A stretch of 64,000 bases of DNA, taken from assembly GCA_900290365.1 (NCBI GenBank), contig OMOE01000167.1:6305-70304 (forward strand), read 5' to 3'. Shown here piece after piece: positions 1,291-64,000 of the stretch (its first letter is position 1; each line of letters begins with the position of its first letter). This DNA comes from Syntrophobacter sp. SbD1 (GTDB taxonomy: Bacteria; Desulfobacterota; Syntrophobacteria; Syntrophobacterales; Syntrophobacteraceae). Made by a program: the position numbers and the translations under genes. The notes under the pieces were generated by a model, which was given only the letters and a program-made list of their open reading frames with translations, did no database searches and was not told the origin of the DNA.

Positions 1291-3942
1291 GTGAGCAAAA
1301 CGATGAATGTCATTGACGGTCTGAGGAAGGTTTTTTCCTTCTGGTCGCCCACAAAGCCAAGTCTACCCTTTTCGGTGCTGTTTAAAAAGTTCAGGAGCAT
1401 CCTGGAGCGCAATAACCGGATCCTCGAACTTATGGCCGACATGGGTGACAAGCTCGGGGGCGAGTATGTCTTTGACCGTCAGTATGTTTTAGACATAAGC
1501 GAGAATATAGGAGATCTGGTCTTCAAGCTGATTTCAGACCTGTGCGTTATGACACAGACCGAGAATGTGGATCTTTTTATCTCATTCGAACGTATACAGA
1601 ACGACATCCAGGAGGAGCTGGCCGGAAGGCGTGCTTTTCCGATGATCAGGCCGGCGGTCCTGCTCGATGAACTCAACGGCGACCTCAATGAGGAGGTCGG
1701 AAACAAGTTCGCAAACATCGGGGACATCCGCAATACGCTGGGTCTGCCCACCATGGACGGGTTTGCTATAACGACCAGGGCATTTTTCGACTTCATGAAG
1801 GCAAACGGTCTTCTCAAGCACATAGAGACCTCTCTGGCAGCGGTGGACCTAAAGGATGAGACCGCGTTCGAAGCAATGTGCGATGATGTGCGCACGCGCA
1901 TTTTGAAGGGGACTATTCCCCGGCATGTAGTTTCAAGCATAAATGCCATGCTCGATGTCGTAAAGGGCAGAGCCGAGGTGAGATACCCGCGCTTTGCCGT
2001 AAGGAGCAGTGCCTGGGGCGAGGACAGCGAATTCAGTTTTGCCGGGCAATATGAAAGCGTGCTCAATGTCCCGGGGAATGGAATCGCGGAAGCCTACCGG
2101 CGGGTTATAGCCAGCGCCTACACGCCTGAGGCCTGGCGGTACAGGCTTCATCGAGGATTCCGGGAAAGTGAGATGGCCATGGCGGTCGGATGCCAGTTGA
2201 TGGTCGACGCCGAAGTCAGCGGCGCAATGTACACTTATGCCCCGCTTCCCCTTGAAAAGGAAGCCATGATGATAAGCGCCGCCTGGGGCCTCGGACCGGC
2301 AGTTGTGAGCGGTCTCGCCGAATCGGATACCTTCGTTTTGGACAGGATGCCACCACATAATATCCTTTCGAACGAGTCAGGGCACAAAGTGAGCAAAATG
2401 GTCATGGACCTGAACGGCGGCACGGCCTGGCGTGAAGTTCCCGGCCATCTGCAGGATAAACCGTGCCTTTCGGACGAATATATACAGAGGCTGGCCCAGG
2501 CGGCCATAATGATCGAAAGATACTACAGACGTCCCCAGGACGTTGAATGGGCCTTTGACAGCAAAGGCAATTTGTATATCCTCCAGTCAAGACCTCTCAA
2601 CGTTCGGCCGAACCAGCCGGACCGTCATCGGCTCTATATCGATCATGCGTCCCTTTCGGCGCAGGTTCTTTTTTCGGGAAAGGGCACCGTTGTACAGGGA
2701 GGTGTGGCGTCGGGAAAGGTCTATGTGGCCCGGGCAGATGATGATCTCAATGATTTCCCGTACGGGGCCATCCTGGTGGCCCGCTATACCTCTCCCAAAT
2801 ACTCCAAGATCATGCGCAAAGCCAGGGGCATACTAACCGACATTGGTTCGGCCACCGGGCATATGGCCACTTTGGCGCGCGAATACCGGGTCCCTACGGT
2901 GGTGGATACCGGAGTGGCCACCAAAGTTCTGAAGACGGGCGATGAGGTGACGCTGGATGCGATCCAGAACGTGGTCTACGAAGGAACGGTCAATGAACTG
3001 AGCCAATTTGAGATCACCCAGGAAGAGGTCTTCGAAGAATCGTATGAGTACCGGCTGCTAAAAAGGATACTCAAAAAAGTGAATCCCCTCAATCTGGTCG
3101 ATCCTCACAGCGAGTCTTTCAAGGCAGCCCGGTGCCTGACGTTTCATGACATCACACGGTTCGTTCATGAAAAAGCGGTTGAGAGACTCATAGATCTGAG
3201 CGAAAATTACCAGAACTATCACGACAGGACCCCCAAACGACTGGATTGCGACATTCCTCTGGGTTTGGTGATAATCGATATAGACAAGGGCACGAGCGCG
3301 CTTCCCGAGGCTCGGTCCATGACGGTCGAGCAAATTGAATCCGCACCCATGAAAGCGATGCTGCAAGGGCTTTCGGAAAGCGGAATGTGGGAAACCACCC
3401 CGGTTGCCGTGGACATGGGAAGCATGATGTCGAGCTTCACAAGAACTTTCAGCTCATCGCTGGCCGGCCCCGAGGATGTGGGCCGCAACCTGGCGGTGAT
3501 ATCGAACAACTACATGAATCTCCACCTTAGGCTCGGTTATCATTTCACCATCCTGGACGCCTACATTGGAGATGAACTCAACGATAATTACATTTATTTC
3601 CGGTTTCTGGGGGGTGTTTCAGATCTCCAGCGCCGTTCGCGCCGGGCCAGGTTTATAGCCGAGGTCATGGAGTGCTACGATTTCCGTGTCGAAGTACATG
3701 GAGATTTGATTGTGGGCAGGCTTAAAAAAATGTCCCGCGACAGGATGGTCTCGAGAATGAAGGTGCTTGGCGGCCTGATAGGTTATACTCGCCAACTCGA
3801 TATCAGCATGATAAGCGATGAACGGATCGGCCAGCATGTGGCCGAATTCATGCACAGAATTGACGTTCTTACGGAGGTGGGAGATGACGTCCCAATGTGC
3901 CGGCTGCCAGCAACAAAAGACGCAGATTCTTATACTCGATGA
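1291..3942 (+). CDS. PpsA/PPDK-like phosphohistidine enzyme, paralogue 1 (N-helical region + ATP-grasp + swivel His domain + unassigned ~300-aa C-domain)
   Basis: VRSSAWGEDSEFSFAGQYESVLNV and PQDVEWAFDSKGNLYILQSRP match the PPDK_N ATP-grasp. GSATGHMATLAREYRVPTVV is the PEP-utiliser mobile domain (His codon 2860-2862). I recognise no PEP/pyruvate TIM-barrel motifs in the last ~330 aa. Start is GTG 1291 or ATG 1303. Confidence 0.85.
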   Translation: MSKTMNVIDGLRKVFSFWSPTKPSLPFSVLFKKFRSILERNNRILELMADMGDKLGGEYVFDRQYVLDISENIGDLVFKLISDLCVMTQTENVDLFISFERIQNDIQEELAGRRAFPMIRPAVLLDELNGDLNEEVGNKFANIGDIRNTLGLPTMDGFAITTRAFFDFMKANGLLKHIETSLAAVDLKDETAFEAMCDDVRTRILKGTIPRHVVSSINAMLDVVKGRAEVRYPRFAVRSSAWGEDSEFSFAGQYESVLNVPGNGIAEAYRRVIASAYTPEAWRYRLHRGFRESEMAMAVGCQLMVDAEVSGAMYTYAPLPLEKEAMMISAAWGLGPAVVSGLAESDTFVLDRMPPHNILSNESGHKVSKMVMDLNGGTAWREVPGHLQDKPCLSDEYIQRLAQAAIMIERYYRRPQDVEWAFDSKGNLYILQSRPLNVRPNQPDRHRLYIDHASLSAQVLFSGKGTVVQGGVASGKVYVARADDDLNDFPYGAILVARYTSPKYSKIMRKARGILTDIGSATGHMATLAREYRVPTVVDTGVATKVLKTGDEVTLDAIQNVVYEGTVNELSQFEITQEEVFEESYEYRLLKRILKKVNPLNLVDPHSESFKAARCLTFHDITRFVHEKAVERLIDLSENYQNYHDRTPKRLDCDIPLGLVIIDIDKGTSALPEARSMTVEQIESAPMKAMLQGLSESGMWETTPVAVDMGSMMSSFTRTFSSSLAGPEDVGRNLAVISNNYMNLHLRLGYHFTILDAYIGDELNDNYIYFRFLGGVSDLQRRSRRARFIAEVMECYDFRVEVHGDLIVGRLKKMSRDRMVSRMKVLGGLIGYTRQLDISMISDERIGQHVAEFMHRIDVLTEVGDDVPMCRLPATKDADSYTR

Positions 3943-50180: not shown

Positions 50181-51437
50181 ATGTTGGATTCAACGGCGGC
50201 TGTGGACAAGATATTGGTCTGTGTGAGCGCCAGTACTTCCAGTGCGAACGTGATACGATACGCTGCAACAAAGGCCGAGGGCATGCACACCAGGTTTTTT
50301 GCGGTGCATGTGGAAACTCCTCGCGGGATGCTGCTGCCCGAAGATGAGCGCAACCGGGCTATGGACAATATGAGGCTGGCCGAGCAACTCGGGGCTGAAA
50401 CAGCTACCCTGACAGGTCGAAACATTGCCGAAGAAACGATGAGGTTCGCGCGCGAGAAGGGCATAACAAGGATAATAGCCGGAAAACCAGGACGTTCGCT
50501 ACTACGGAGTATTTTCCTGGCCAGCCCTGTGGATCGCCTGGTGCACATCAGCGGAGAAATCGACATTGAGATTGTCTCAGGTGAATCCGGGGAGGCGTTT
50601 CGCGCGCCCTATCGCATTAGGTCCCGTGAAATTCCCTGGTCGGATTATGGAACGGGCTTACTTTTTTACATGCTTGCTACGGGGCTCTGCTTCCTGATGT
50701 TCAGGCGTTTCGATCTGAGCAACCTCATAATGGTCTATTTGCTGGCTGTTATGGTGACGGCCATTGAGACCGGGCGCGGACCGGCAATTGCCATCTCTCT
50801 GCTGAGCGTGCTGTCGTTCGATTTCTTTTTTGTTCCCCCGCGTTTTTCGTTCACGGTGGATGACGCTCAGTACATAGTGACTTTCATCGTCATGTTTGCG
50901 GTCTCTTTGACTATAAGCCACCTTACGGAGCTGATGCGCAGGCAGACTCGAACGGCCCGTCTGCAAGAGAGGCAGGCAGCCGCGATGCATGGTCTGAGCC
51001 GACAGCTTGCCGGCTCCAGGAGTGTTGAAAAGATCTTGAAGATAACCGTGGAGTACATCTCGGAGATTTTCGACTCCAAAGTGATAGTCCTGTTGCCTGA
51101 CAAGGACGGCAGATTGAAGACGGGCGGTGGCGACCCTTCCCTTGTATTTCAAAAGGATGTGGTCCGGCAACTCGACGTTGCGAGCAAAGCATTCAAAACG
51201 GGGGAATCAACCGGGTGGGGAACCCAACACGAGCCGGAAAACGAAATACTCTATGCCCCGCTTCAAGTAGCGGATTTAACTCTTGGAGTTGTCGCGCTGC
51301 GGCCCGGCGATCCTGATAGGTTTCTCATGCCCGATCAGCGCTACCTGTTCGAATCGCTTGTGAAGCAGGTGGCCCTTTCACTTGAAGTTGAGTTTATGGC
51401 CGAAAGATGCATACCGTTGCAATCGGCGGTTTTCTAA
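50181..51437 (+). CDS. KdpD-like sensor fragment: USP-like + DUF4118 membrane + GAF-like domains, no histidine-kinase core
   Basis: ILVCVSASTSSANVIRYAATKAE...RIIAGKPGRS (the KdpD USP region), 3-4 TM helices, and a GAF-like tail. The ORF ends before any HisKA H-box. Confidence 0.7.
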   Translation: MLDSTAAVDKILVCVSASTSSANVIRYAATKAEGMHTRFFAVHVETPRGMLLPEDERNRAMDNMRLAEQLGAETATLTGRNIAEETMRFAREKGITRIIAGKPGRSLLRSIFLASPVDRLVHISGEIDIEIVSGESGEAFRAPYRIRSREIPWSDYGTGLLFYMLATGLCFLMFRRFDLSNLIMVYLLAVMVTAIETGRGPAIAISLLSVLSFDFFFVPPRFSFTVDDAQYIVTFIVMFAVSLTISHLTELMRRQTRTARLQERQAAAMHGLSRQLAGSRSVEKILKITVEYISEIFDSKVIVLLPDKDGRLKTGGGDPSLVFQKDVVRQLDVASKAFKTGESTGWGTQHEPENEILYAPLQVADLTLGVVALRPGDPDRFLMPDQRYLFESLVKQVALSLEVEFMAERCIPLQSAVF

Positions 51438-53296
51438 TCTTTCTTCATCGTATCGGGGCGGCAGCCAAAATAGCTGATTTCAAAGTTAAACTCAGGGAAT
51501 TTCCTGGGCAGGGTCATCAGGTTGAACACCATGACCCCGATTGCGAGTCTGTCCAGCCATGAGGACATAGGCCAGCCGAAGTGAACGGTAATATTTTTGT
51601 CAGGCAACTCATATTTGAGAATCTTGAGCAGAAGCAAAATACGCTGATATAGCTTGCCCCGCAGAAGGGGAAAACGGAAATGGTTTATCGCCATTTTTGG
51701 CGGAATGCCCTGGCGCGGTGTATAAAAGGTTATGTAAGCTTCATTTTCCTTAGGATCTTCGAGGGATTCTTCCCGGGGACGGCGGAATATTACGTGTACG
51801 TCCGGCGAGGATGATTCCGCCAGGAAGAGTATCATTTCCATCTCATTGTCGGCCTGGCCGATCTGAACGATTTCCGGCGCCCTTTTCTTTGCAAGCAGGC
51901 TTCCCGCCACGAGGACAAAAAAAGTTATCCCTCCCCACAGAGCCGTTCCATGGGGCTTGTCTATCGCCAGAAAAATGAAGCAGCTTATCAGGATTATCCA
52001 GAGAATAAGCGTGCCGATGCGGCTGGTGTAATAAGGGATTACTTCCTTGGTGCCCACAAAATAGCGGTAAATTAAAAGCGATCCCATATTTATGCAAAAA
52101 CTCGCCAGGAGCCCTATAGCGTACATATCGGCAAGAACTTGCTGAGAGCCGCTTGTAATTACGATGACGATTGAAAAGAAAATCGCATTTAGAATGTGAA
52201 TCCGGTAGAGCGAATGTCGCCGGTTCGTAGCGATCAGCCACAGGAATCCGTAGCGGTGCGCCACGCGCTCGATCAGTTCGCTTGAGGCGACGAAAGCGGT
52301 ATTAACGGCCATAATCAAAGTGATGCTGGCCAGTCCGGCAACCAGGATGCCGAATAATGTCCCGTTGAGCAATGTTGCATAATGGGTGACCAGGTCGCCT
52401 TCATGCTCGCTGAAATTGATCGGGGCGCAAAGAACCAGTCCTGCAACCAGAGGTGTCGCGATGCCCACTGTAAGCGCCAGGAAAAGATATGCCTTATGGA
52501 TCTCGCGCCAGCTCCGCACAAAACCGGCCGTCTGTATGACCGATTCGATTCCTGAATAGGCCAGGATACAAAATGCTATGTGGCTTATGAAATTGCCGTA
52601 ATCATGGAGAAGTGAGCCCGTCTCAAGCGGCTTTAACGCTTCACCGCCGGACTCTTTGAGGCGCGCCAGGGCAGAGCTGTCAAATTCGACTATCCCGGAT
52701 GCAATAAGGTTCATCATAACGAAGGCGGCCATGATGAAAATCAGGAACGTAAACCTGGCATTCTCTCTTATGCCGAGAATATTTAGTCCTGCCATTGCCC
52801 AGAGAATCCCGAGCACGAGAAAGACAACAAGGGACGGGTTCTCAGCAACATGAGGGAAAAATGAAGTCGCATTAAGAACGGCGCTCACAGCCGAAATACA
52901 CGCGGTGAGTATATAATCGACCATAATGGAAGAAACGGCCACAAAGGATATCATCGGACCAAGCACGAGGTAGGAGAAAGAATATACTCCTCCACCAATG
53001 AGACCGTTATGCTCCAGGATTTCAGCAATCTCGGTAAACCGCGTGCTCATGAACCGGATAAGAATGCTGGTAATGGCGATGAAAACTATGGCTTTCAAAC
53101 CGATGAATCTGAATGCTTCGGCAGGGACATAAAAGATGGACGTAAATTCGTCCATAAGGGTGATTATTGCAACCGCCAGCCAAGTCAGCCAAATTCGGCC
53201 CGTCTGGGAAACGGTGAGAAGATTCGGCCGTCTCATTAGGTAGACGAAGGTTACCACAAGTGACAGATTGAGGAGGAAGAGAACGATGAACTTCAT
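51434..53296 (-). CDS. APC-superfamily transporter resembling KimA (K+/H+ symporter) with a cytoplasmic C-domain
   Basis: 12 TM. GGGVYSFSYLVLGP...SSIMVDYILTACISAVSAV parallels the KimA GGGAYIVS...LLVDYILTVAVS. Preceded by a c-di-AMP riboswitch. Confidence 0.65.
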   Translation of the reverse strand: MKFIVLFLLNLSLVVTFVYLMRRPNLLTVSQTGRIWLTWLAVAIITLMDEFTSIFYVPAEAFRFIGLKAIVFIAITSILIRFMSTRFTEIAEILEHNGLIGGGVYSFSYLVLGPMISFVAVSSIMVDYILTACISAVSAVLNATSFFPHVAENPSLVVFLVLGILWAMAGLNILGIRENARFTFLIFIMAAFVMMNLIASGIVEFDSSALARLKESGGEALKPLETGSLLHDYGNFISHIAFCILAYSGIESVIQTAGFVRSWREIHKAYLFLALTVGIATPLVAGLVLCAPINFSEHEGDLVTHYATLLNGTLFGILVAGLASITLIMAVNTAFVASSELIERVAHRYGFLWLIATNRRHSLYRIHILNAIFFSIVIVITSGSQQVLADMYAIGLLASFCINMGSLLIYRYFVGTKEVIPYYTSRIGTLILWIILISCFIFLAIDKPHGTALWGGITFFVLVAGSLLAKKRAPEIVQIGQADNEMEMILFLAESSSPDVHVIFRRPREESLEDPKENEAYITFYTPRQGIPPKMAINHFRFPLLRGKLYQRILLLLKILKYELPDKNITVHFGWPMSSWLDRLAIGVMVFNLMTLPRKFPEFNFEISYFGCRPDTMKKD

Positions 53297-53628: not shown

Positions 53629-53802
53629 GAAAGTTAACGTGCCCCACATTTCATTTTGAAATGATTTGCAATAATTTGCATTGCGATTCAGCCTTGCCCC
53701 TGGAGAGGTCTTTTTCTTTAATTTATTGAAGTTAAAGGATATTATTGCCTGCTCCGGATGCGGGGCATTAGATTGCCTGATACTCCGGCACCGGCCGGGA
53801 GG

Positions 53803-55623
53803 ATGACTATGAGATTGAGGACAAAACTTATTCTGGCATTCAGCGGGCCGCTCGCCATTCTGATCATTCTCGGCCTGATCAGCGCTCGAACGATCACGAA
53901 GTCCAGCCACACGGTGGAGAGGATTTTCCGTGAAAACTACGACAGCGCCGACGCATGCCTTAAGATGAAAGACGCCATCCTAGTGATGGATGGAACGGCG
54001 GAGATATTTGTTTGGGACGGTGTGAAGGACGAAAAAACAATTGCCGCCGATCTGGAGTTTGTAAATCACCTCCGGTTCCAGCAGGGCAACGTAACGCTTC
54101 CGGGCGAGCAGGATTTGACCGATTCTCTAACAAATCAATGGAACACGTATCGGGTGGCGTTAGAGAAGTTTTTCACCCTATCCTCAGAAGGAACGGACCG
54201 GAGGCAGTTTTATCGAAACAGCATCCTGCCGCAGTCCCAGCGCGTTTTGGACATTGCGCAGCGAATTATCGACATAAACCTCAACAACATGGTTTCCACA
54301 GACGGGCAGGTACGCAAGGAGGCGGCGGAAACCAACCGCACCCTGCTGCTCCTTGTGCTCTCAGGCATCCTGCTCTCGGCGCTCTTCGTTGGAATATTCT
54401 GGCAATCCATGGTGAGGCCTATTTCCAGGCTTATGGATTCCGTACAGGAGATCCAACGCGGAAACCTCGACTTCTTTGTCCATGTGCATTCGAAGGATGA
54501 AATAGGAAACCTGGCCTCCGCATTCAATGAAATGACTTCAACCCTTCGCCGGTTCAGAAAAATGAACCGGACAAAGCTCCTGCGTTCTCAAAGGGCGACC
54601 ATTTCGGTGCTGAACGCTCTTCCACAGGCAATCGCCGTTTGCAATCCAGGCGGTGGGATCGAACTTTCAAACGAGGCCGCGGTGAAGATGTTCGCCCTTG
54701 CTCCCGGGAAATCTATTAAGGACGCAGCAGATGAAAAGATAGTCGAACTGTTCTCACAGGCGAACCTGGAAATGCGGCCGTTTTGCAACAAGGGATGGGA
54801 TTGGGCAATCCAGAAGTTTTCGGACGGCGATGAAAAGTTTTTCCTGCCCGAAGCAATTCCGATATTCGATGATGAGCATGGACTGATCGGCGTTACCATG
54901 GTCATCTCCGACGTTACCAGGCTGCGGCAGCTCGATGAGGCAAAAAATGGCCTGATTTCGACCGTTTCACACGAGCTCAAGACCCCCTTGACTTCCATCA
55001 GGCTAGCAACGCATGCCTTGCTCAATGAAAAACTGGGAGTCCTGAACCCCAAGCAGACGGAACTTGTCTTGGCCGCCCGCGAGGAAAGCGATCGGCTGCA
55101 CAGGATCATCGAGAATTTGCTCGAACTTGGCAGGATGGAATCCGGTGGAGCCAGGCTCGATCTTATGCCGATCAGTGCGGAGGAAATCCTGCTGGCAGCC
55201 GCAGATGAAATGAGGACTGCCTTTGCCGACAGGGGCGTATCACTTTCCCTCGAATTGCCGGCCGATTCACCCCGGGTACTTGCCGACAGGCTCAGGCTGG
55301 GAATTGTATTCGCAAACCTGCTTAACAACGCGCTCAAGCACACCCCTCCCGGAGGCCGGGTTACGCTCTCCGGGCGCGAAGAAGGCGGCGAAGTGCTCTT
55401 TTCCGTCGAAGATACCGGTGAGGGAATACCCCAGGAGAATTTGCCCCACATTTTTGAAAAATTCTTTCGAGTGCCGGGATGTGAAGAGTATGGGACCTCG
55501 GGATTGGGACTGGCCATAGTGAAAGAGATTACCGAGGGTCATGGAAGCAATATCAAAGTGAACAGCAGTCCCGGAAAAGGCGCCAGGTTCGAATTCGCGC
55601 TCAGCAAGGCTGAATCGGTTTGA
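53803..55623 (+). CDS. Sensor histidine kinase (periplasmic/4-helix sensor, HAMP, PAS-like, HisKA, HATPase_c)
   Basis: H-box STVSHELKTPLTSI, N-box LLNNALKHT, G1 VEDTGEGIP, G2 GTSGLGLAIV. Confidence 0.9.
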   Translation: MTMRLRTKLILAFSGPLAILIILGLISARTITKSSHTVERIFRENYDSADACLKMKDAILVMDGTAEIFVWDGVKDEKTIAADLEFVNHLRFQQGNVTLPGEQDLTDSLTNQWNTYRVALEKFFTLSSEGTDRRQFYRNSILPQSQRVLDIAQRIIDINLNNMVSTDGQVRKEAAETNRTLLLLVLSGILLSALFVGIFWQSMVRPISRLMDSVQEIQRGNLDFFVHVHSKDEIGNLASAFNEMTSTLRRFRKMNRTKLLRSQRATISVLNALPQAIAVCNPGGGIELSNEAAVKMFALAPGKSIKDAADEKIVELFSQANLEMRPFCNKGWDWAIQKFSDGDEKFFLPEAIPIFDDEHGLIGVTMVISDVTRLRQLDEAKNGLISTVSHELKTPLTSIRLATHALLNEKLGVLNPKQTELVLAAREESDRLHRIIENLLELGRMESGGARLDLMPISAEEILLAAADEMRTAFADRGVSLSLELPADSPRVLADRLRLGIVFANLLNNALKHTPPGGRVTLSGREEGGEVLFSVEDTGEGIPQENLPHIFEKFFRVPGCEEYGTSGLGLAIVKEITEGHGSNIKVNSSPGKGARFEFALSKAESV

Positions 55624-56042: not shown

Positions 56043-56155
56043 TGGCCCGCGTCCTTAAGCGCCCGCAGGCGGCTGTCCGTTACGAACTCAAATGGCGCGT
56101 CCTTGGCCGGTTCTCCTTTATCAGCCTGTCCAGGCCAAATTTTTTGACCCGATAG
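56042..56155 (+). pseudogene. parE toxin remnant (N-terminal ~12 codons recognisable)
   Basis: A TGATG overlap start gives MARVLKRPQAAV..., then the frame runs into the 3' end of the convergent activator gene and loses similarity. Confidence 0.4.
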
Positions 56156-57651
56156 TTCATTTGCCGGAATGTAAGACCCAGATCGTCGGCGGCCCTTCTC
56201 CTGATCCACTTGTTGCGCTCAAGCGCCGCCGAAACTTCCTTTCGTTCGATTTCGTCCAGGCGGGACCAGGCGGAAATCGACTCAAGGCCTTTCGGCCCGT
56301 AACCCGCCGCCCTGTTCGGGTCGAATATCGATGCAAGGTCACCCGGTTCGATCTCCTCGCCTTCAGCCATTACCACCAGGCGAATTACGGCATTTTTCAT
56401 CTCCGCCAAATTTCCCGGCCAGTCATATTCGCACAGTTTCTTTAATGCTTGCGGGCTCAATTGAGTCGTTCTGCCCTGTTCCCTGCATGCATCCTCGAGA
56501 AAATGCCCGATCAATAATGGTATGTCTTCTTTTCTGTCACGGATCGAAGGCACATGAATCGGCAGGGTGCCGAGCCTGCTCAGCAGGTCTTTTCTGAAGG
56601 ACCCAGCAGCCGCTGCATCGGAAAGACTGCCGCTCGATACGGCGATGAGCCTCACATCGCCCCCCTTGGGCTTAGTCGTTCCAAAACCGCCTGCTTGCAG
56701 CTTGTCAAGAAAGTCCAACAACTTCACCTGGTGGGACGCCGAGAGGTCGCCCACCTCATCGAGAAGCAATGAGCCGCCGGCCGCCTTGTCGAAGGCGCCT
56801 CGCGAGGAGCAGATCTCGTCCATGCCGCCGCTATGGAACCCGGTTCCACTTCCGAACAGCTCAGTTTCCAGCAGGTCCTCGGGAAGAGAGCAATGAACTT
56901 TTACAAAAGGAGAGGATGCCCTGCCGCTAAGTTCGTGAACGATCCGGGCGACCGAACTTTTTCCCGTGCCCGGTTCACCCCAGATCAGAACAGGCGCTTC
57001 GGTGGGCGCCACCTTCCTGATTTGGACCTCGAGCCTCCGGCCCGCCATGCTCTTGCCAAGGCATACCAGCCCGAGATGCTCTTCGGAAATCTTCGCCCTT
57101 AGAGCCATATTTTCTCTTACCAGAGTCTCCTCGCGCCTCCTTACCTGGGATTGCAGGCTCAATACCCGGGCAACAAATGAAGCCAGCATCGAAAGGAACT
57201 GCATGTCATCGGCCAGCGGCGCCTGATCTCCGAACAGATCGTCCATGATGATCGCTCCCATGACTTCATCGGAGAGGGTGACCGGGGCGCCGAGCAAGCG
57301 GACCTGTTCCTTTTGAATGGAATGAAGAGCCTTGCGGTCCAAAAAAAGAGGCCTCGGGTTATCGCGCAGAACAACGAAGGGCTGGGGAATGCGCAATACA
57401 AGGTCAAACCCGGTTTTGTAAAGGGTGCGGATCATCTGTTCCGTGTCACCGCGCGAATCTTGCCTGGTTGGGGTAAAGAAAAAACGCACCTCTTCCCTGT
57501 TGCTGACGATGATGGCGGCAGTCGCCCGGGGAACAGCCTGTGAAAGGACTCCCAGCACTCCCTCGATGGCCTGTTCGAGATAGAGCGCACGATCTATCAT
57601 CCTGTGCATCACAGAAAAGATATTTAATTTTAGTTCACATAGGTTGTCCAT
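56080..57651 (-). CDS. Sigma-54-dependent transcriptional activator (GAF + AAA+ + Fis-type HTH), no receiver domain
   Basis: Walker A GEPGTGKS, Walker B GGSLLLDEV, RKDLLSRL, and a C-terminal HTH AADDLGLTFRQMNYRVKKFGL. The GAFTGA loop is atypical (see findings). Confidence 0.88.
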   Translation of the reverse strand: MDNLCELKLNIFSVMHRMIDRALYLEQAIEGVLGVLSQAVPRATAAIIVSNREEVRFFFTPTRQDSRGDTEQMIRTLYKTGFDLVLRIPQPFVVLRDNPRPLFLDRKALHSIQKEQVRLLGAPVTLSDEVMGAIIMDDLFGDQAPLADDMQFLSMLASFVARVLSLQSQVRRREETLVRENMALRAKISEEHLGLVCLGKSMAGRRLEVQIRKVAPTEAPVLIWGEPGTGKSSVARIVHELSGRASSPFVKVHCSLPEDLLETELFGSGTGFHSGGMDEICSSRGAFDKAAGGSLLLDEVGDLSASHQVKLLDFLDKLQAGGFGTTKPKGGDVRLIAVSSGSLSDAAAAGSFRKDLLSRLGTLPIHVPSIRDRKEDIPLLIGHFLEDACREQGRTTQLSPQALKKLCEYDWPGNLAEMKNAVIRLVVMAEGEEIEPGDLASIFDPNRAAGYGPKGLESISAWSRLDEIERKEVSAALERNKWIRRRAADDLGLTFRQMNYRVKKFGLDRLIKENRPRTRHLSS

Positions 57652-57928: not shown

Positions 57929-57944
57929 TGGCAGATAAATTGCT
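57929..57944 (+). promoter_or_regulatory. Sigma-54 promoter of glnB-amt
   Basis: TGGCAGataaaTTGCT, with exact -24 GG / -12 GC spacing, 105 nt upstream of glnB. Confidence 0.8.
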
Positions 57945-58000: not shown

Positions 58001-58387
<387 letters not shown>

Positions 58388-58493: not shown

Positions 58494-60197
58494 ATGGCTG
58501 GATGGAAAAGAGCGCGGGTACTTCTGTTCGTTTCAACATTTATAGCCTTGATGTTAATGCTGCGCCCGGCCGTTGCAGAGGAAACTTCCCCCCAAGTTGG
58601 AGTTCAAGCTGCTGCGGCACAGCCTGCAGAGCCGCAACCCGACCCCGCTGGAATTGCGACGGGGACTAAGGCGGATGCCCTGGATGCGGCCGGTAATCCT
58701 TTTGTTGTTGCCGAGCCCACCGACACAAAGGATCCCGACTACGCGAAGAAGAAAAAGGAGTACGAAGAATACCAGGAGCAGGCAGCCAAAGAGCCCCTCG
58801 CGGTTAAGCTGGCCGACACCGTGGGGCATGGCCGGATTGCGACCAATTTCAACTGGACACTCGTCACAGGTTACCTGGTGCTCTTCATGCAAGCAGGCTT
58901 CGCCCTTCTCACCTGCGGTTTGGTGCGCAAGAAAAACGCCGCCCATCTAATGATGCTTAACTTCGCCGCATACGTCTTCGCCTTCCTGGCATACTACGCA
59001 TGCGGCTACGCCTTCCAGTTCGGCGCCGTCGCAGTGAATGCGGCTCCAACGAATCTCGGTGGGATCCCGACTCTAAATGAGTTCCTCATTGGAAGCGGCC
59101 AGTGGGGCTTCCTGGGCGGCAAAGGCTTTTTCTTGAGCGGCCCGGCCTACGACGCCGGGAGCAATTGTCTCACGCTGTTCGAAGTCGTGTTCATGGAGAC
59201 GGCCGGGTATATCATCGTAGGCGCCATCTGTGAGCGGATCACTTTCTGGGGATTCATCCTCTGTGAGATCTTCATGGGCGCCTTCCTCTACCCCATATTC
59301 GGTTGTTGGGTCTGGGGCGGCGGCTGGATGTCGCAGTTAGGCGCCACTATGGGCTTTGGCCACGGCTACGTGGATTTTGCCGGCTCGACCGTTGTCCATG
59401 GAGTGGGTGGCTTCGCCGCAATGGCGCTCGCCTATATTCTCGGCCCACGCATCGGCAAGTACGGTAAGGACGGCAAGCCTCGAGCCTTTCCCGCGCACAA
59501 CCTCGCCTTTGTCGTGACCGGCACCTTTATTCTCCTGTTTGGCTGGATGGGTTTTAACCCGGGCTCAACCCTCGGCGCGTCGGACCTGCGCATTTCGGTG
59601 ATAGCCGTTAACACCAATCTCGCCGCAGTCGCTGCTTCGGCGACGGCCTTGATTTTCTGGTACTGGCGTTTCGGCAAACCGGACATCACGATGGCGTGCA
59701 ATGGCATGCTCGCAGGTCTCGTTGCCATTACTGCGCCTTGTGCGTTTGTTAGCCCGAACTCCGCCGTTATGATCGGCATCCTTGCGGGCATCCTCGTTTG
59801 CCTCGGAGTTCTTTTTAATGAGCGGGTGATCAAAGTCGACGATCCCTGCGGGGCCATCTCCGTGCACGGATATTGCGGCTGGCTAGGGGCCGTTTGTGTC
59901 GGCATTTTTGCTGATGGCACCTATGGTTCAGGCTGGAACGGCGTCGGCGCAACGACCTACCTCGGCAAAGCCGGCCAGGGTGTGACTGGTCTTCTCCATG
60001 GGGACGTGACGCAGTTCCTGACCCAGCTTGGCGGGGCCACCTTCCTGGCGCTGTACGCTTTCGGGTTTACCTTCATCGTGTTTAAAATCGTGAACGCCGT
60101 CAAGTCGATGCGCGTCTCTGAAGAAGTGGAACGCGAAGGACTCGACGTTCCGGAATTTGGTTTGCATGCTTACCCCGAGGACTCCTTGGTCGCATAG
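58494..60197 (+). CDS. amtB: Ammonium transporter (Amt family) with a long N-terminal extension
   Basis: Signal peptide. FMQAGFALLTCG, DFAGSTVVHGVGG, GWMGFNPGS, VHGYCGWLG. Confidence 0.95.
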   Translation: MAGWKRARVLLFVSTFIALMLMLRPAVAEETSPQVGVQAAAAQPAEPQPDPAGIATGTKADALDAAGNPFVVAEPTDTKDPDYAKKKKEYEEYQEQAAKEPLAVKLADTVGHGRIATNFNWTLVTGYLVLFMQAGFALLTCGLVRKKNAAHLMMLNFAAYVFAFLAYYACGYAFQFGAVAVNAAPTNLGGIPTLNEFLIGSGQWGFLGGKGFFLSGPAYDAGSNCLTLFEVVFMETAGYIIVGAICERITFWGFILCEIFMGAFLYPIFGCWVWGGGWMSQLGATMGFGHGYVDFAGSTVVHGVGGFAAMALAYILGPRIGKYGKDGKPRAFPAHNLAFVVTGTFILLFGWMGFNPGSTLGASDLRISVIAVNTNLAAVAASATALIFWYWRFGKPDITMACNGMLAGLVAITAPCAFVSPNSAVMIGILAGILVCLGVLFNERVIKVDDPCGAISVHGYCGWLGAVCVGIFADGTYGSGWNGVGATTYLGKAGQGVTGLLHGDVTQFLTQLGGATFLALYAFGFTFIVFKIVNAVKSMRVSEEVEREGLDVPEFGLHAYPEDSLVA

Positions 60198-60462: not shown

Positions 60463-60478
60463 TGGCAAACAAATTGCT
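60463..60478 (+). promoter_or_regulatory. Sigma-54 promoter of the APC permease gene
   Basis: TGGCAAacaaaTTGCT, with exact spacing, 120 nt upstream of ATG 60599. Confidence 0.8.
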
Positions 60479-60598: not shown

Positions 60599-62122
60599 AT
60601 GGCACAGGGAGAAATGAAAAAGACACTGGGGCTGACCGGTGTCACGGTGAATGCAATGGCGTTGATTGCGCCGGGGGCATTTTTATGGTTGACCTACCAG
60701 GTGCAGGCCTCGCAGGTGGATTTGGCCGGCAACACTACTGCGATGGATATGTTTGCCGGACTTTTTGTCGCATTGATTCTGGCATTCCTGACCGCAGTTT
60801 CCTATTCCAAGCTCGCGGAACTCTATCCGGATGCCGGGACGGGCAGTTCATACTACTTTACCGAACAGGCCTTGCTGGGGGAGGACAAGCTGTCGCCTTT
60901 CGCCAGGTTGTCCAAGTTTGTGGTGGGCTGGTTCTCGCATCTTTACTACTGGGTATACCCGGGCGTAATGGTAGCAATGATGGCTACGCTCATAGTCTAT
61001 ATTTTCCAGCAGTTCGGTATCGATCTCTCCGCTTTCTGGCAGATTGTGGTCGCGGTATTATTCGCATTCATGGTCGGATACATAGCTTTTCGCGGGATCA
61101 CCGGGTCAACCGTATCCAGTGTGGTGATCAATGTTATCCAGATCATTGCTTTGCTGGTAGTAACGATTCTGGCGCTGGTTTACCGTTTTACCAACCCCGA
61201 GCATGTTGAGTTCGTTCACTCGACACTCTCCTCGATTGTAATGCCTCACAGTTTCTCAAACGTGATGTTCCAGGCTACTGTGGCAATATTGCTGCTGGTT
61301 GGTTTCGAATCGGCCACGGCCCTTACGGCAGAAGCCAAGTCGCACAAGCACGTAAGCCGAGGGGTCATGATCTCGCTGGTTATCCAGGGACTCTTAATGT
61401 ACCTTTTCGAATACTTCGGGGCCAATGCCTGGATTAACACGGCTTATACCGGGAAAGACGCCAAGGGCGCAGTGGTCACCGGCCTTGACGCCGCAGCCGC
61501 CTCCAGCGCTCCGCTTGGAGACATGGTGCAAAACCTTGGCAATGCTCTTCTGGGCAACATGGGCTTCGTCCTGATGATTACGGTCGCGATTACGGTGGCT
61601 ATCGCCGTAATAGGCACCACTTTGGCCTGTTATAACACCGGGGTGCGCGTTACCTACGCAATGTCGAAGGATAAGGAAATGCCGAGCTTCCTCGGGTTTT
61701 TGCATCCCAAACACGCGACGCCGCATGCAGGCATACTGGCGATGACCATTGCCTCGGCAGTGATCGGTGCGTTCGGGGTCCTTTCGGTCGTAAACCTGAC
61801 CGCCATAACCTTCTGGTCCAATATCGGCACCTTCGTTCTCTACGGGATGACAAATGTGATAGCGCTGGTGGCGTTTTTGCGGCATCCGCAGCGAAATGCG
61901 TTCACGCACATAGTGGTTCCCGTTCTCGGCACTTTTGCCAACATCGCCATGCTGGTCGCGGTGCTCTACCTGGGAATCCTTGGCGGCGGCGATACCCAGA
62001 CCGCTGCTATGTACTCGATCATAGCCACCGGGGTATGGCTTGTGATTGGCGTTGTTTACCTGTTTGTACAAAGCTCCCGTACCCGCAGGAAAATAATTGG
62101 AGTACCTGTTGAAACCCATTAA
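60599..62122 (+). CDS. APC-family amino acid/polyamine permease, apparently nitrogen-regulated
   Basis: 12 TM; NAMALIAPGAF and FESATALTAEAK motifs; GAGGAAGG RBS. Confidence 0.85.
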   Translation: MAQGEMKKTLGLTGVTVNAMALIAPGAFLWLTYQVQASQVDLAGNTTAMDMFAGLFVALILAFLTAVSYSKLAELYPDAGTGSSYYFTEQALLGEDKLSPFARLSKFVVGWFSHLYYWVYPGVMVAMMATLIVYIFQQFGIDLSAFWQIVVAVLFAFMVGYIAFRGITGSTVSSVVINVIQIIALLVVTILALVYRFTNPEHVEFVHSTLSSIVMPHSFSNVMFQATVAILLLVGFESATALTAEAKSHKHVSRGVMISLVIQGLLMYLFEYFGANAWINTAYTGKDAKGAVVTGLDAAAASSAPLGDMVQNLGNALLGNMGFVLMITVAITVAIAVIGTTLACYNTGVRVTYAMSKDKEMPSFLGFLHPKHATPHAGILAMTIASAVIGAFGVLSVVNLTAITFWSNIGTFVLYGMTNVIALVAFLRHPQRNAFTHIVVPVLGTFANIAMLVAVLYLGILGGGDTQTAAMYSIIATGVWLVIGVVYLFVQSSRTRRKIIGVPVETH

Positions 62123-62235: not shown

Positions 62236-62985
62236 GTGGATGCCTTACAGGTGCACGGTCTTTCCGATAAGGGGAGCCGTCAAAACAACGAAGATTACTT
62301 CGGCTATTACATGCCTACCGGGGGGCTCGACCGCCTGGGAAGCCTGTTTGCGGTTTCGGACGGCGTGGGCGGAAGCGCTGCCGGGGAGGTCGCCAGCGCC
62401 GAGGCGGTCAACGTGTTGCTCCAGGAATATTATTTCGGCGATCATACGGACAAAGTCCCCGAGAGGCTAAAAAACGCATTCCGAAATACTTCCCTGCACA
62501 TTTACGATCTTTCGATCAGTCATAGTTCGACGCGCCACATGAAGTGCACCCTCTCCACTCTTTTGTTGAAACAAAACCGGTTCTTTATCACACATGTCGG
62601 TGACTCGAAAATCATGCTGCTGCGCGATAATGATATGATCCAACTGACCAAGGACCACAACCTGGTGGGAAAACTCATGCGCCTTGGACTGGTAACCGCT
62701 GAAGAGGCGCGTACACATCCCAACAAAAATGTGCTATTGAAAGCGGTTGGGGATGGCCCATTGCTGATGCCTGATTTTTATTCGGGGGTCATCCGGCCCG
62801 GGGACCTTTTTTGTATGATTACCGATGGGATACTGGAACATGCCACCCACGACGAGTTAAAATCATTTCTCATCGAGCAGGGTTCGTCCACAAATGAATT
62901 GGCCGAGCTGATAGCCGAACTCAACAGGCGCGGCGGCCAGGATAACATGACCATCATGACGGTTAGAGTTAACAGGATTTACTAA
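62236..62985 (+). CDS. PP2C-family Ser/Thr protein phosphatase
   Basis: SDKGSRQNNEDY, AVSDGVGG, HVGDSK, MITDGI, GGQDNMT. GTG 62236 with an AAGAGGGA RBS. Confidence 0.88.
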   Translation: MDALQVHGLSDKGSRQNNEDYFGYYMPTGGLDRLGSLFAVSDGVGGSAAGEVASAEAVNVLLQEYYFGDHTDKVPERLKNAFRNTSLHIYDLSISHSSTRHMKCTLSTLLLKQNRFFITHVGDSKIMLLRDNDMIQLTKDHNLVGKLMRLGLVTAEEARTHPNKNVLLKAVGDGPLLMPDFYSGVIRPGDLFCMITDGILEHATHDELKSFLIEQGSSTNELAELIAELNRRGGQDNMTIMTVRVNRIY

Positions 62986-63002
62986 AAGAGGCGGTGACAA
63001 AA

Positions 63003-63341
63003 ATGACTAAAATAGAATGCATCCTGCGGCCGGATAGGATTTCGGAAGTGAGCAAAATCCTTGGCAGCCTGGGGATCAAAGGGATGACCGTAACAGAGGT
63101 GATCGGCTGCGGATTGCAGAAAGGCCACATCCGGGATGACTGGAACACCGAGTTCAAGATCAATCTGCTGCCGAAAACCAAAATAGAGATGGTGGTCTCC
63201 GACAGCATGGTTGATGACGTAGTAAACGCCGTAATCAAAATTTCCCGCACTGGCGAAATCGGAGACGGCAAAATTTTCACCTATCCCCTTGGTAACGCCA
63301 TACGGATTCGCACGGGTGAAACCGGCGAGGATGCAATCTAG
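63003..63341 (+). CDS. P-II family signal protein paralogue with a non-canonical T-loop (Thr49, Phe51)
   Basis: MTKIECILRPDRISEV...GMTVTEVIGCGLQKGHIRDDWNTEFKINLLP...TGEIGDGKIFT...IRIRTGE. Confidence 0.88.
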   Translation: MTKIECILRPDRISEVSKILGSLGIKGMTVTEVIGCGLQKGHIRDDWNTEFKINLLPKTKIEMVVSDSMVDDVVNAVIKISRTGEIGDGKIFTYPLGNAIRIRTGETGEDAI

Positions 63342-64000
63342 GGTTTTCTCAATAAAAGCAGAAGAATCGCAATCAGAACGGCAGCCAACACTGCCCCTCC
63401 GTATATCAGCAGGTTATTCCGCTTGGTGGGGAGGACAGCGGCCATCGGCGGGTCGGGTTCATTCACCCATTTGAGGTCTGCCGGGTCGGGTTCATTCACC
63501 CATTTGAGGTCTGCATTTTCAGGAAAGCGCAAATCATTTGCCATCTGCTCCGCCGAGTCGTAGCGTTCATCCTTTCTTCTGCGCAACGCTCTGCGAATGG
63601 CCGCCCATATCCCTGGATGCAAACCTTTTACCCCCGTGAGCGGTTCAGGGTCTTTGGTCATGTGCAGGTACATGACCGTCAGCGGATTATCCCCGGTAAA
63701 CGGAGGAGATCCGCTTAAAAGGTTATACATGAGGCAGCCGACTGCATAGATATCGCTTTTTGCAGTGCCGCGTTCTCCTTTGATCTGTTCGGGGGCCATG
63801 TATTCGGGGGTCCCCATGAGACCCGAAAAACCGCGCCAGGTAACCCGGGGCGCCCCTTCCATGAGCGCGATGCCGAAATCGAGAATTTTCAAATGGCCAT
63901 CCGGGCCCAGCACAAGGTTTTCCGGTTTTATATCACGGTGATACACTCCCCTTTCATGGCAGTAGTGTAGCGCATCCAACAGGTTTGCCACTATCTTTAC
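63338..64000 (-). CDS. Hanks-type Ser/Thr protein kinase, C-terminal part with TM anchor; 5' end lies outside the window
   Basis: HRDIKPENL, ILDFGIA, GTPEYMAPEQ, and a C-terminal TM LLIYGGAVLAAVLIAILLLLL. The frame is open to nt 64000. Confidence 0.9.
   Translation of the reverse strand, partial: VKIVANLLDALHYCHERGVYHRDIKPENLVLGPDGHLKILDFGIALMEGAPRVTWRGFSGLMGTPEYMAPEQIKGERGTAKSDIYAVGCLMYNLLSGSPPFTGDNPLTVMYLHMTKDPEPLTGVKGLHPGIWAAIRRALRRRKDERYDSAEQMANDLRFPENADLKWVNEPDPADLKWVNEPDPPMAAVLPTKRNNLLIYGGAVLAAVLIAILLLLLRKP
63449..63514. repeat. Perfect 33-bp in-frame tandem duplication inside the kinase gene
   Basis: 63449-63481 = 63482-63514, giving ADLKWVNEPDP twice in the juxtamembrane linker. Confidence 0.95.

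Follow-up and report, generated by a model that had tools for sequence, protein, structure and literature searches.

A PII protein encoded with a PP2C phosphatase, a tail-anchored Ser/Thr kinase and an APC-type permease: a candidate nitrogen-linked uptake-control cassette of Syntrophobacteraceae and Firmicutes

PII is among the most widespread signal proteins, and its covalent control is known through two reactions, nucleotidylylation of Tyr51 by GlnD-type enzymes and phosphorylation of Ser49 in some cyanobacteria. What, then, does a PII protein do when its gene lies between those of a Ser/Thr phosphatase and a Ser/Thr kinase? Such a gene is found in Syntrophobacter sp. SbD1, in a stretch of 64,000 nucleotides (nt) of contig OMOE01000167.1 (positions 6,305 to 70,304, hereafter the window), where a PII paralogue of 112 amino acids (aa) is encoded at 63003..63341 on the plus strand. 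An earlier note, made from the letters alone, had predicted a PII controlled by Ser/Thr phosphorylation with its writer and eraser encoded alongside. The comparison presented here shows that the gene belongs to a conserved cassette of four, an APC permease, a PP2C phosphatase, the PII and a Hanks-type kinase, syntenic over 43 species-level genomes from two phyla. We hold, with slightly better than even confidence, that this PII serves as the metabolite sensor of a cassette which is conserved, linked to nitrogen and concerned with the control of uptake; judged from the sequence comparisons, PII-Thr49 as a dedicated kinase substrate is not the most economical reading of the locus.

In the window, the first gene of the cassette is an APC-superfamily permease of 507 aa (60599..62122, plus strand; Pfam AA_permease_2, 7.9e-20), followed by a PP2C (PPM) Ser/Thr phosphatase of 249 aa (62236..62985, plus strand; Pfam PP2C, 1.5e-13; NCBIfam Stp1/IreP-type, 1.3e-54). 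The PP2C stop and the PII start are separated by 17 nt, a gap that contains a Shine-Dalgarno-like AGAGG, and the TAG stop of the PII gene and the stop of the convergent kinase gene share a CTAG palindrome, which produces a 4-nt overlap. The Hanks Ser/Thr kinase (63338..64000 and beyond, minus strand; Pkinase, 2.6e-31) is represented by its C-terminal 220 codons, the N-terminus lying outside the window, and its translation ends in a single transmembrane anchor, LLIYGGAVLAAVLIAILLLLL (63350..63412, minus strand), followed only by RKP. The earlier note had described the 17-nt spacing, the convergent, membrane-anchored Hanks kinase and its 4-nt overlap, and all of these are confirmed by the PP2C reading frame ending at 62985, the CTAG and the anchor at the C-terminus. 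The contrast that it drew between the paralogue and a canonical GlnB at 58049 is equally correct, a Tyr51 PII (glnB, 58049-58387, plus strand) being found 5' of the gene for the Amt ammonium channel (58494-60197, plus strand).

Concerning the identity of the paralogue, it gives a full-length match to P-II (PF00543; 90.7 bits vs a cut-off of 25) and aligns gap-free with solved GlnB and GlnK proteins at about 45-50% identity. An AlphaFold2 monomer model built from 37 family members has a predicted local distance difference test (pLDDT) value of 81.9, with low confidence confined to residues 38-52, that is, the T-loop, and its top Foldseek matches in the PDB are E. coli PII, GlnZ and S. elongatus PII (E about 1e-11). 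In the family alignment K58, G84, G87, K90, R101 and R103 of the effector site are invariant and Q39 is kept in 97%, R38 being replaced by Leu, a change common to the sister GlnK clade. Because the effector-site residues are conserved, sensing of ATP, ADP and 2-oxoglutarate is probably retained. The protein nevertheless scores below the GlnB and GlnK equivalog cut-offs (NF008111 and NF007946; 112.8 vs 202 bits and 104.9 vs 181 bits, respectively). A neighbour-joining tree computed for 123 PIIs of the fetched loci unites all the cassette-linked PIIs in a single monophyletic clade, and its sister group consists of amt-linked GlnK from Desulfofundulus, Pelotomaculum and Thermincola. This topology places the cassette clade as a descendant of an amt-linked Firmicute GlnK and, since deltaproteobacterial PIIs nest inside Firmicute ones, tentatively suggests horizontal transfer.

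Two other identities were tried and rejected: NifI1/NifI2, on account of the single gene, the lack of nif genes in view, the canonical loop length and the GlnK-type grouping, and the PII-like proteins SbtB, CutA and PstA/DarA, in view of the strong PF00543 match and the canonical TGEIGDGKIF and RIRTGE motifs. Hence the PII core claimed by the earlier note, which had also allowed for a PII-like family, is that of a bona fide PII of GlnK ancestry according to Pfam, model and tree.

The T-loop (residues 37-55, 63111..63167, plus strand) reads GCGLQKGHIRDDWNTEF (GCGLQKGHIRDDWNTEFKI), with W47, N48, T49, E50 and F51 at its tip; W47 is encoded at 63141-63143, T49 (ACC) at 63147-63149 and F51 at 63153-63155. 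Among the best 120 database matches (68-100% identity) a single T-loop pattern is found, G[CF]GLQKGH and W-N-T-E-[FLY]-N-I-N-LLPKTK separated by a stretch that varies. Counted over 154 distinct family sequences, position 47 is Trp in 95%, position 48 Asn in 92% and position 50 Glu in 97%, while position 49 is Thr in 81% and Ser in 4%, the remainder being Ala (7 sequences), Glu (4), Asp (3), Met, Lys, Asn and His (2 each) and Leu (1). Within the W-N-T-E motif, the putative phospho-acceptor T49 is therefore the position with the lowest conservation. Position 51 is shared among Phe (40%), Leu (38%) and Tyr (17%), so the Thr49/Phe51 loop that the earlier note had read is correct for the window, and Tyr51 is unconserved in the family at large. 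Relative to the sister GlnK, the loop tip has changed from Y46-R47-G48 to x-W47-N48 and the conservation of Tyr51 is gone; Arg47 is reportedly, after the work of Conroy and coworkers in 2007, the GlnK residue that enters the AmtB pore. The W-N-x-E tip looks like a docking epitope.

How tightly is this PII bound to its neighbours? Homologues with 85%, 74% and 71% identity lie in the same gene order, permease, PP2C and PII, with a kinase of about 320 aa immediately downstream, either convergent or co-directional. A synteny scan with one genome per GTDB species covered 79 loci, 43 of the window-PII clade and 36 with other PIIs, mostly amt-linked. PP2C is a neighbour in 42/43 clade loci vs 0/36 of the others (Fisher p 9e-22), and the kinase and the permease are each found in 37/43 vs 0/36 (Fisher p 1e-16 for each), an association well outside what chance would give. 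Most of the missing cassette genes correspond to contig ends, the real exceptions being L011, L027 and L029, where no kinase is seen, and the pair L040 and L042, which present only PP2C and PII, permease and kinase not being in view. Carriers include Syntrophobacteraceae and related deltaproteobacterial metagenome-assembled genomes (MAGs), Desulfarculales UBA702, and on the Firmicute side Peptococcaceae, Desulfosporosinus, Acididesulfobacillus, Clostridium hydrogenum, Caproicibacter and Ruminococcaceae. The fact that the kinase lies on either strand across loci argues for a cassette held together by selection on proximity, and not by an inherited operon accident. The trio described in the earlier note is thus syntenic across two phyla, the unit being a quartet once the permease is included, and from these gene neighbourhoods the link of kinase and phosphatase to the cassette PII is well supported.

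On the strictest reading of such a link, the co-encoded kinase and PP2C have PII-Thr49 as their main substrate, in a Ser49-type phospho-PII system outside cyanobacteria that would replace GlnD-type modification of Tyr51, with phosphorylated PII (PII-P) controlling the permease or other targets. This reading draws on the Thr or Ser present at the exposed loop apex in 85% of members together with the loss of Tyr51, on PP2C standing immediately 5' of PII in 42/43 loci and alone with it in L040/L042, and on Asp or Glu making up 7 of the 23 non-Ser/Thr replacements at position 49, as expected of phosphomimetic drift. T-loop phosphorylation with removal by a PP2C is moreover an established PII mechanism (PMC4285133). 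The phosphatase itself looks active, with the metal-binding motifs NED, SDGVGG, VGDS, TDG and QDN present and at least 97% conserved in 48 cassette PP2Cs. Its best solved relatives are Stp1 (2pk0, 2e-28) and tPphA (2j82, 1.7e-26), so that it is about as similar to tPphA as to Stp1, and tPphA is no better a match. Its most likely start is the GTG at 62236, homologues beginning within four codons; TTG 62200 and 62149 are alternatives, the former chosen by gene callers on an identical contig.

Several observations nevertheless make this strict reading unlikely. Apart from T49 being the weakest position of its own motif, members with Ala, Met, Lys, Leu, Asn, His, Asp or Glu at position 49, among them the entire basal Desulfosporosinus/Acididesulfobacillus subclade, retain a highly conserved kinase and PP2C. 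Both are full length in loci with K49 (L090), A49 (L091), M49 (L092, L035), D49 (L043), N49 (L044), H49 (L057, L080) and E49 (L067, L074, L081). Loss of Thr49 shows no correlation with loss of the kinase: L011 (A49) has none, but L027 and L029 (T49) have none either, and the K49, A49 and M49 loci keep theirs. The earlier note had named residues other than Thr/Ser at position 49 of orthologues as evidence against its prediction; the hydroxyl is there in 85% of the 154 sequences, and the other 15% have different residues, with kinase and PP2C retained in the loci named above. A search for an invariant clade-specific Ser/Thr elsewhere in PII yielded none, since the universal T29, T83 and T104 are general PII residues, and T59 and T93 are clade-typical, not universal. 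Finally, Thr49 stands in a D-W-N-T-E context, where cyanobacteria have R-G-S-E.

The basal subclade (Peptococcaceae CEB3, Acididesulfobacillus and Desulfosporosinus) is a case of its own, its PIIs (L057 5455-5820 and L080 5422-5760, as well as those of L067 and L074) lacking WNTE. Peptococcaceae CEB3 and Acididesulfobacillus have permease, PP2C and kinase on one strand with PII convergent, while in Desulfosporosinus the gene order is different (L067) or incomplete on the contig (L074), and each of these loci has a second, more canonical PII with a YRGQE loop nearby. Of two clade-typical cysteines of the PII, C6 (63018-63020) is kept in 96% of sequences but is Ala in this subclade, and C36 (63108-63110; 91%) is shared with the sister GlnK clade, in place of the canonical Phe36.

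The window fragment of the kinase shows HRDIKPEN, DFG and GTPEYMAPE, with the activation loop PRVTWRGFSGLMGTPEYM, and in relatives the full-length protein has about 318-335 aa and carries the catalytic Lys. Over the cassette kinases the catalytic Lys, HRD, DFG and the activation segment PRVTWRGFSGLxGTPEYMxPEQIxGERG are invariant, loci without Thr49 included, and the activation and P+1 segments remain constant while the T-loop tips differ (WNTEF, NGHEY, NDEQF, LDDEF and FENEL). None of the cassette kinases has a sensor domain; they are predicted to be membrane-held through a tail anchor without ectodomain, a feature common to the wider kinase family. A defence-system reading of the kinase was rejected, the NCBIfam MADS6/PglW matches being to the generic kinase domain and far below cut-off. 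It should be mentioned that the window kinase gene contains a perfect 33-nt tandem duplication (63449-63514) that doubles the juxtamembrane ADLKWVNEPDP, whereas two independent metagenome contigs, L001 and L002, otherwise 100% identical there, have a single copy of the unit; the duplication is either a strain variant or a MAG assembly artefact.

A profile built from cassette kinases and run over metagenome contigs retrieved, beyond one close relative, 26 loci (L095-L120) with 37-53% identical kinases, which are tail-anchored wherever the C-terminus is on the contig. The permeases beside them are 48-64% identical to that of the window over their full length, and a PP2C usually accompanies them. 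Eight of the loci are without PII within 5 kb (L095, L100, L104, L108, L110, L114, L116 and L117). In four of these, L108, L110, L114 and L116, the gene directly after that of the kinase (about 40-100 nt) is a type-I glutamine synthetase, the order being permease-PP2C-kinase-glutamine synthetase. Other PII lineages stand beside related kinases in L101, L103, L105, L106, L111 and L120. One of them, with the loop 'GRGRQKG[IV]PLKWGAKEY', is convergent with the kinase in L106 (5973-6311) and L120 (other-lineage PII genes at 811-1149 and 3245-3619) and lies downstream of it in L103; this PLKWGAKEY loop has K49, and its Trp near the tip is at position 46. NifI-like PIIs occur in L101 and L105 (other-lineage PII genes at 360-1157 in the latter), with L101 (3454-4817) showing three consecutive PII genes between PP2C and kinase, two of them NifI1/NifI2-like and one with a long T-loop insert. 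Ser/Thr49 is found in none of the other-lineage PIIs near related kinases. Among the regulators at these loci, L108 and L116 have a divergent PucR-type GAF regulator and L095 an ANTAR response regulator; L093 likewise has an ANTAR protein 5' of the cassette.

A triad of kinase, permease and PP2C that occurs without PII, or with K49 (PLKWGAKEY) or NifI-like PIIs, is a further point against Thr49 as the principal substrate. Based on these kinase-side loci, with no PII or with PIIs of other lineages, the most conserved axis is read as permease plus tail-anchored kinase, usually with PP2C, and PII as a recurrent but dispensable partner, in a context that by its gene content is that of nitrogen assimilation throughout. 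Since the kinase persists unchanged where Thr49 or PII is missing, it very probably has a conserved substrate or partner other than PII. The earlier note's writer and eraser prediction is in this way kept in part: kinase and PP2C are genetically linked to the PII, and phosphorylation of Thr49 is not the conserved job of the kinase, which is intact where Thr49 or PII is wanting. Thr49 remains the best candidate phospho-acceptor in this organism, and we regard its phosphorylation as plausible, at a little under an even chance. The complete chain, in which the kinase phosphorylates Thr49, PP2C removes the phosphate and the switch gates the APC-fold permease, is less likely than not.

The permease is the component through which the link to nitrogen can be followed further. 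Its identity to the window protein is 59-89% in cassette loci, against 48-64% beside the related kinases of PII-less loci. A sigma-54-type promoter, TGGCAAACAAATTGC, was located by pattern search at 60463..60477 (plus strand), about 135 nt 5' of the permease start. In 26/26 deltaproteobacterial-type loci, the window included, the extended motif TTGGCAAACAAATTGCT (or a close variant) lies ahead of the permease, and it is absent from 17/17 other loci tested, mostly Firmicute. Upstream in the window a GAF-AAA+-HTH sigma-54 enhancer-binding protein is encoded (56080..57651, minus strand; Pfam). Most Syntrophobacteraceae-type loci have its orthologue upstream and oppositely oriented, immediately upstream in L003/L004 and L092; Firmicute cassette loci present neither the sigma-54 promoter nor the orthologous activator. 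The GAF-AAA+-HTH protein is likely the transcriptional activator of the cassette. Between activator and permease the window carries glnB-amt, with its own sigma-54-like site upstream of glnB (57929-57943, pattern search), both sites being of the -24/-12 type. As the pair is missing from that position in L003/L004, it is not counted as part of the cassette; relatives such as L003 have activator and permease in direct divergence, so that glnB-amt has the look of an insertion in the window genome. The link to nitrogen is read from this promoter and activator, from the neighbouring glnB-amt and from the ANTAR regulators or glutamine synthetase of related loci. The earlier note had placed the PII downstream of a 'nitrogen-regulated permease'; the permease does belong to the cassette, and the label rests on the sigma-54-type promoter and not on expression data.

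These neighbours leave room for a PII that acts elsewhere, on the GAF-type sigma-54 activator, glutamine synthetase or Amt, its adjacency to kinase, PP2C and permease being inherited gene order with no functional tie. Regulation of GAF proteins of the NifA type by PII is known, and both the GAF-AAA+-HTH activator and glnB-amt neighbour the cassette in the window. However, the Firmicute cassettes lack both activator and amt, L003 has no amt at that position, and the cassette survives rearrangements of strand and order over two phyla with 0/36 sister PIIs sharing its neighbours, all of which makes an action elsewhere very improbable.

Returning to the uptake-control reading, we propose that the older core would consist of permease, kinase and PP2C, with phosphorylation acting on the membrane complex, be it the permease or the kinase itself. 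PII would have been recruited to bring a 2-oxoglutarate/energy signal into this core, its re-tooled W-N-T-E tip serving as a docking surface, preferably for the cytoplasmic face of the permease in the style of GlnK-AmtB. Phosphorylation of Thr49 would then be an additional, clade-specific switch that blocks docking and is reset by the adjacent PP2C. By analogy, docking on the permease is favoured because the tip of the GlnK T-loop inserts in the pore exit of AmtB (PMC4285133).

A purely allosteric role should be weighed against this proposal, in which unphosphorylated PII tunes PP2C or kinase according to 2-oxoglutarate, ATP and ADP, and the pair acts on the permease or on kinase autophosphorylation only. 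The triad existing without PII and the recruitment of several unrelated PII lineages agree with it, as do the tight pairing of PP2C and PII, the invariant substrate-binding segments of the kinase, and a position 49 that varies between near-invariant W47, N48 and E50 in a manner resembling a binding epitope. It gives, however, no special role to a residue that is Thr in 81% of sequences at an exposed loop apex, and we know of no precedent for PII regulating a PP2C except as its substrate; this role is a serious competitor, although less probable than the proposal above.

Some of our results weigh against the proposal of a PII subunit docking on the permease. The PII-less relatives have kinases of only 37-53% identity and may work differently. 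For the permease, phmmer found no relatives in the PDB and an 11-sequence profile gave only a weak LAT/Asc-1 match (2e-6), from which no substrate can be deduced, and an invariant family-specific cytoplasmic Ser/Thr was sought in it and none could be pinned, S253 in the loop after the sixth transmembrane segment being invariant within the cassette and not in the wider family. The tight pairing of PP2C and PII, which in L040/L042 stand alone without permease or kinase in view, points to a direct relationship between the two, which suits PII-P as a substrate no less well than it suits plain docking. The neighbour-joining tree from which the PII ancestry is derived carries no support values. A separate proposal for the permease, identity with a KimA-type K+ transporter, was rejected, there being no PDB match.

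Other genes around the cassette can be listed briefly. A 109-aa UPF0060 (PF02694) membrane protein adjoins the kinase in L003 (11469-11798), L090 (5340-5669) and L092 (6577-6906), the corresponding position falling past the window end. Kdp genes are seen at unrelated loci, kdpABC beside the cassette in L007 (1-3741) and a KdpC-KdpA fusion in L101 (7016-9445), and may reflect coincidence or a K+/nitrogen link. Further upstream in the window, 50181-53296 holds a Usp-DUF4118-GAF protein, similar to the sensor part of KdpD without its kinase domain, convergent with a 620-aa AA_permease_2 protein, after which come a HAMP histidine kinase (53758-55623) and a ParD-type antitoxin-like gene (PF03693; 55743-56042) with no obvious toxin partner among the listed open reading frames. 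Reading frames similar to the Usp-DUF4118-GAF, permease and histidine kinase trio follow directly after the PII gene in L011, as judged by eye for the kinase and by length and N-terminus for the other two; L011 is the sole Syntrophobacteraceae locus with A49 and no Ser/Thr kinase.

How does the cassette compare with known systems? Its parts are of known kinds (PII, PP2C, Hanks kinase, APC permease) and its logic resembles GlnK-AmtB and cyanobacterial PII-P/PphA; it differs in the transporter class, the loop tip, the loss of Tyr51 and the genomic coupling to a kinase/phosphatase pair. As in GlnK-AmtB, a small PII with a conserved ATP/ADP/2-oxoglutarate site is co-encoded with the membrane transporter of a nitrogen-related operon, its nearest relatives are amt-linked Firmicute GlnKs, and docking of the T-loop at the transporter's cytoplasmic side is, by this analogy, likely. 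Unlike that system, the cassette has an APC-fold permease, a W47-N48 tip in place of R47-G48, no conserved Tyr51, a PP2C and a tail-anchored Hanks kinase in the unit, and a PII below the GlnK/GlnB equivalog cut-offs. With cyanobacterial PII/PphA it shares a hydroxyl residue at position 49 with Glu50 next to it, a tPphA-like phosphatase of the PPM/PP2C family, and the idea of T-loop phosphorylation replacing nucleotidylylation. In cyanobacteria, however, glnB is unlinked to pphA and the PII kinase is still unidentified (PMC4285133; PMC11863333), whereas here the kinase and phosphatase genes flank the PII; residue 49 is not universally Ser/Thr, the context is DWNTE and not RGSE, and phosphorylation is only proposed.

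Kinase-controlled transporters are known in PknF-Rv1747 of mycobacteria and Npr1-Mep2 of yeast, which likewise tie a Ser/Thr kinase genetically or functionally to a transporter, comparable to the permease-kinase(-PP2C) core that exists without PII. The cassette differs in having no identified FHA domain or C-terminal autoinhibitory tail, in its tail-anchored, sensor-less kinase, and in the PII of its operon. The SbtB-SbtA 'valve plug' pairs also combine a PII-fold protein with a co-encoded transporter thought to be gated (bioRxiv 10.1101/2023.08.10.552651), but the cassette protein is a canonical PF00543 PII and not PII-like, and that work on the PII superfamily makes no mention of APC-type permeases, kinases or PP2C. 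In the literature we found no description of a PII beside PP2C, a Hanks kinase or a permease of this type. No PII modification has been reported for Firmicutes or archaea (Merrick 2015 review, PMC4285133), and the cyanobacterial PII kinase, unidentified for about 30 years (PMC4285133), was so described again in 2025 (PMC11863333).

With a PII gene flanked by those of a kinase and a PP2C, the question whether PII is the substrate of a Hanks kinase can be put to a direct test using four defined proteins. If the Thr49 switch were true, a PII kinase would have been identified for the first time in any organism, Firmicutes and Deltaproteobacteria would have their first covalent modification of PII, and an APC-fold permease would be gated as a new class of PII target. 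Independently of Thr49, the APC permease is a probable new target class of PII, and the cassette opens onto a broader, undescribed module of permease, tail-anchored kinase and PP2C which, through glutamine synthetase and PII, appears tied to nitrogen assimilation in soil and peat anaerobes.

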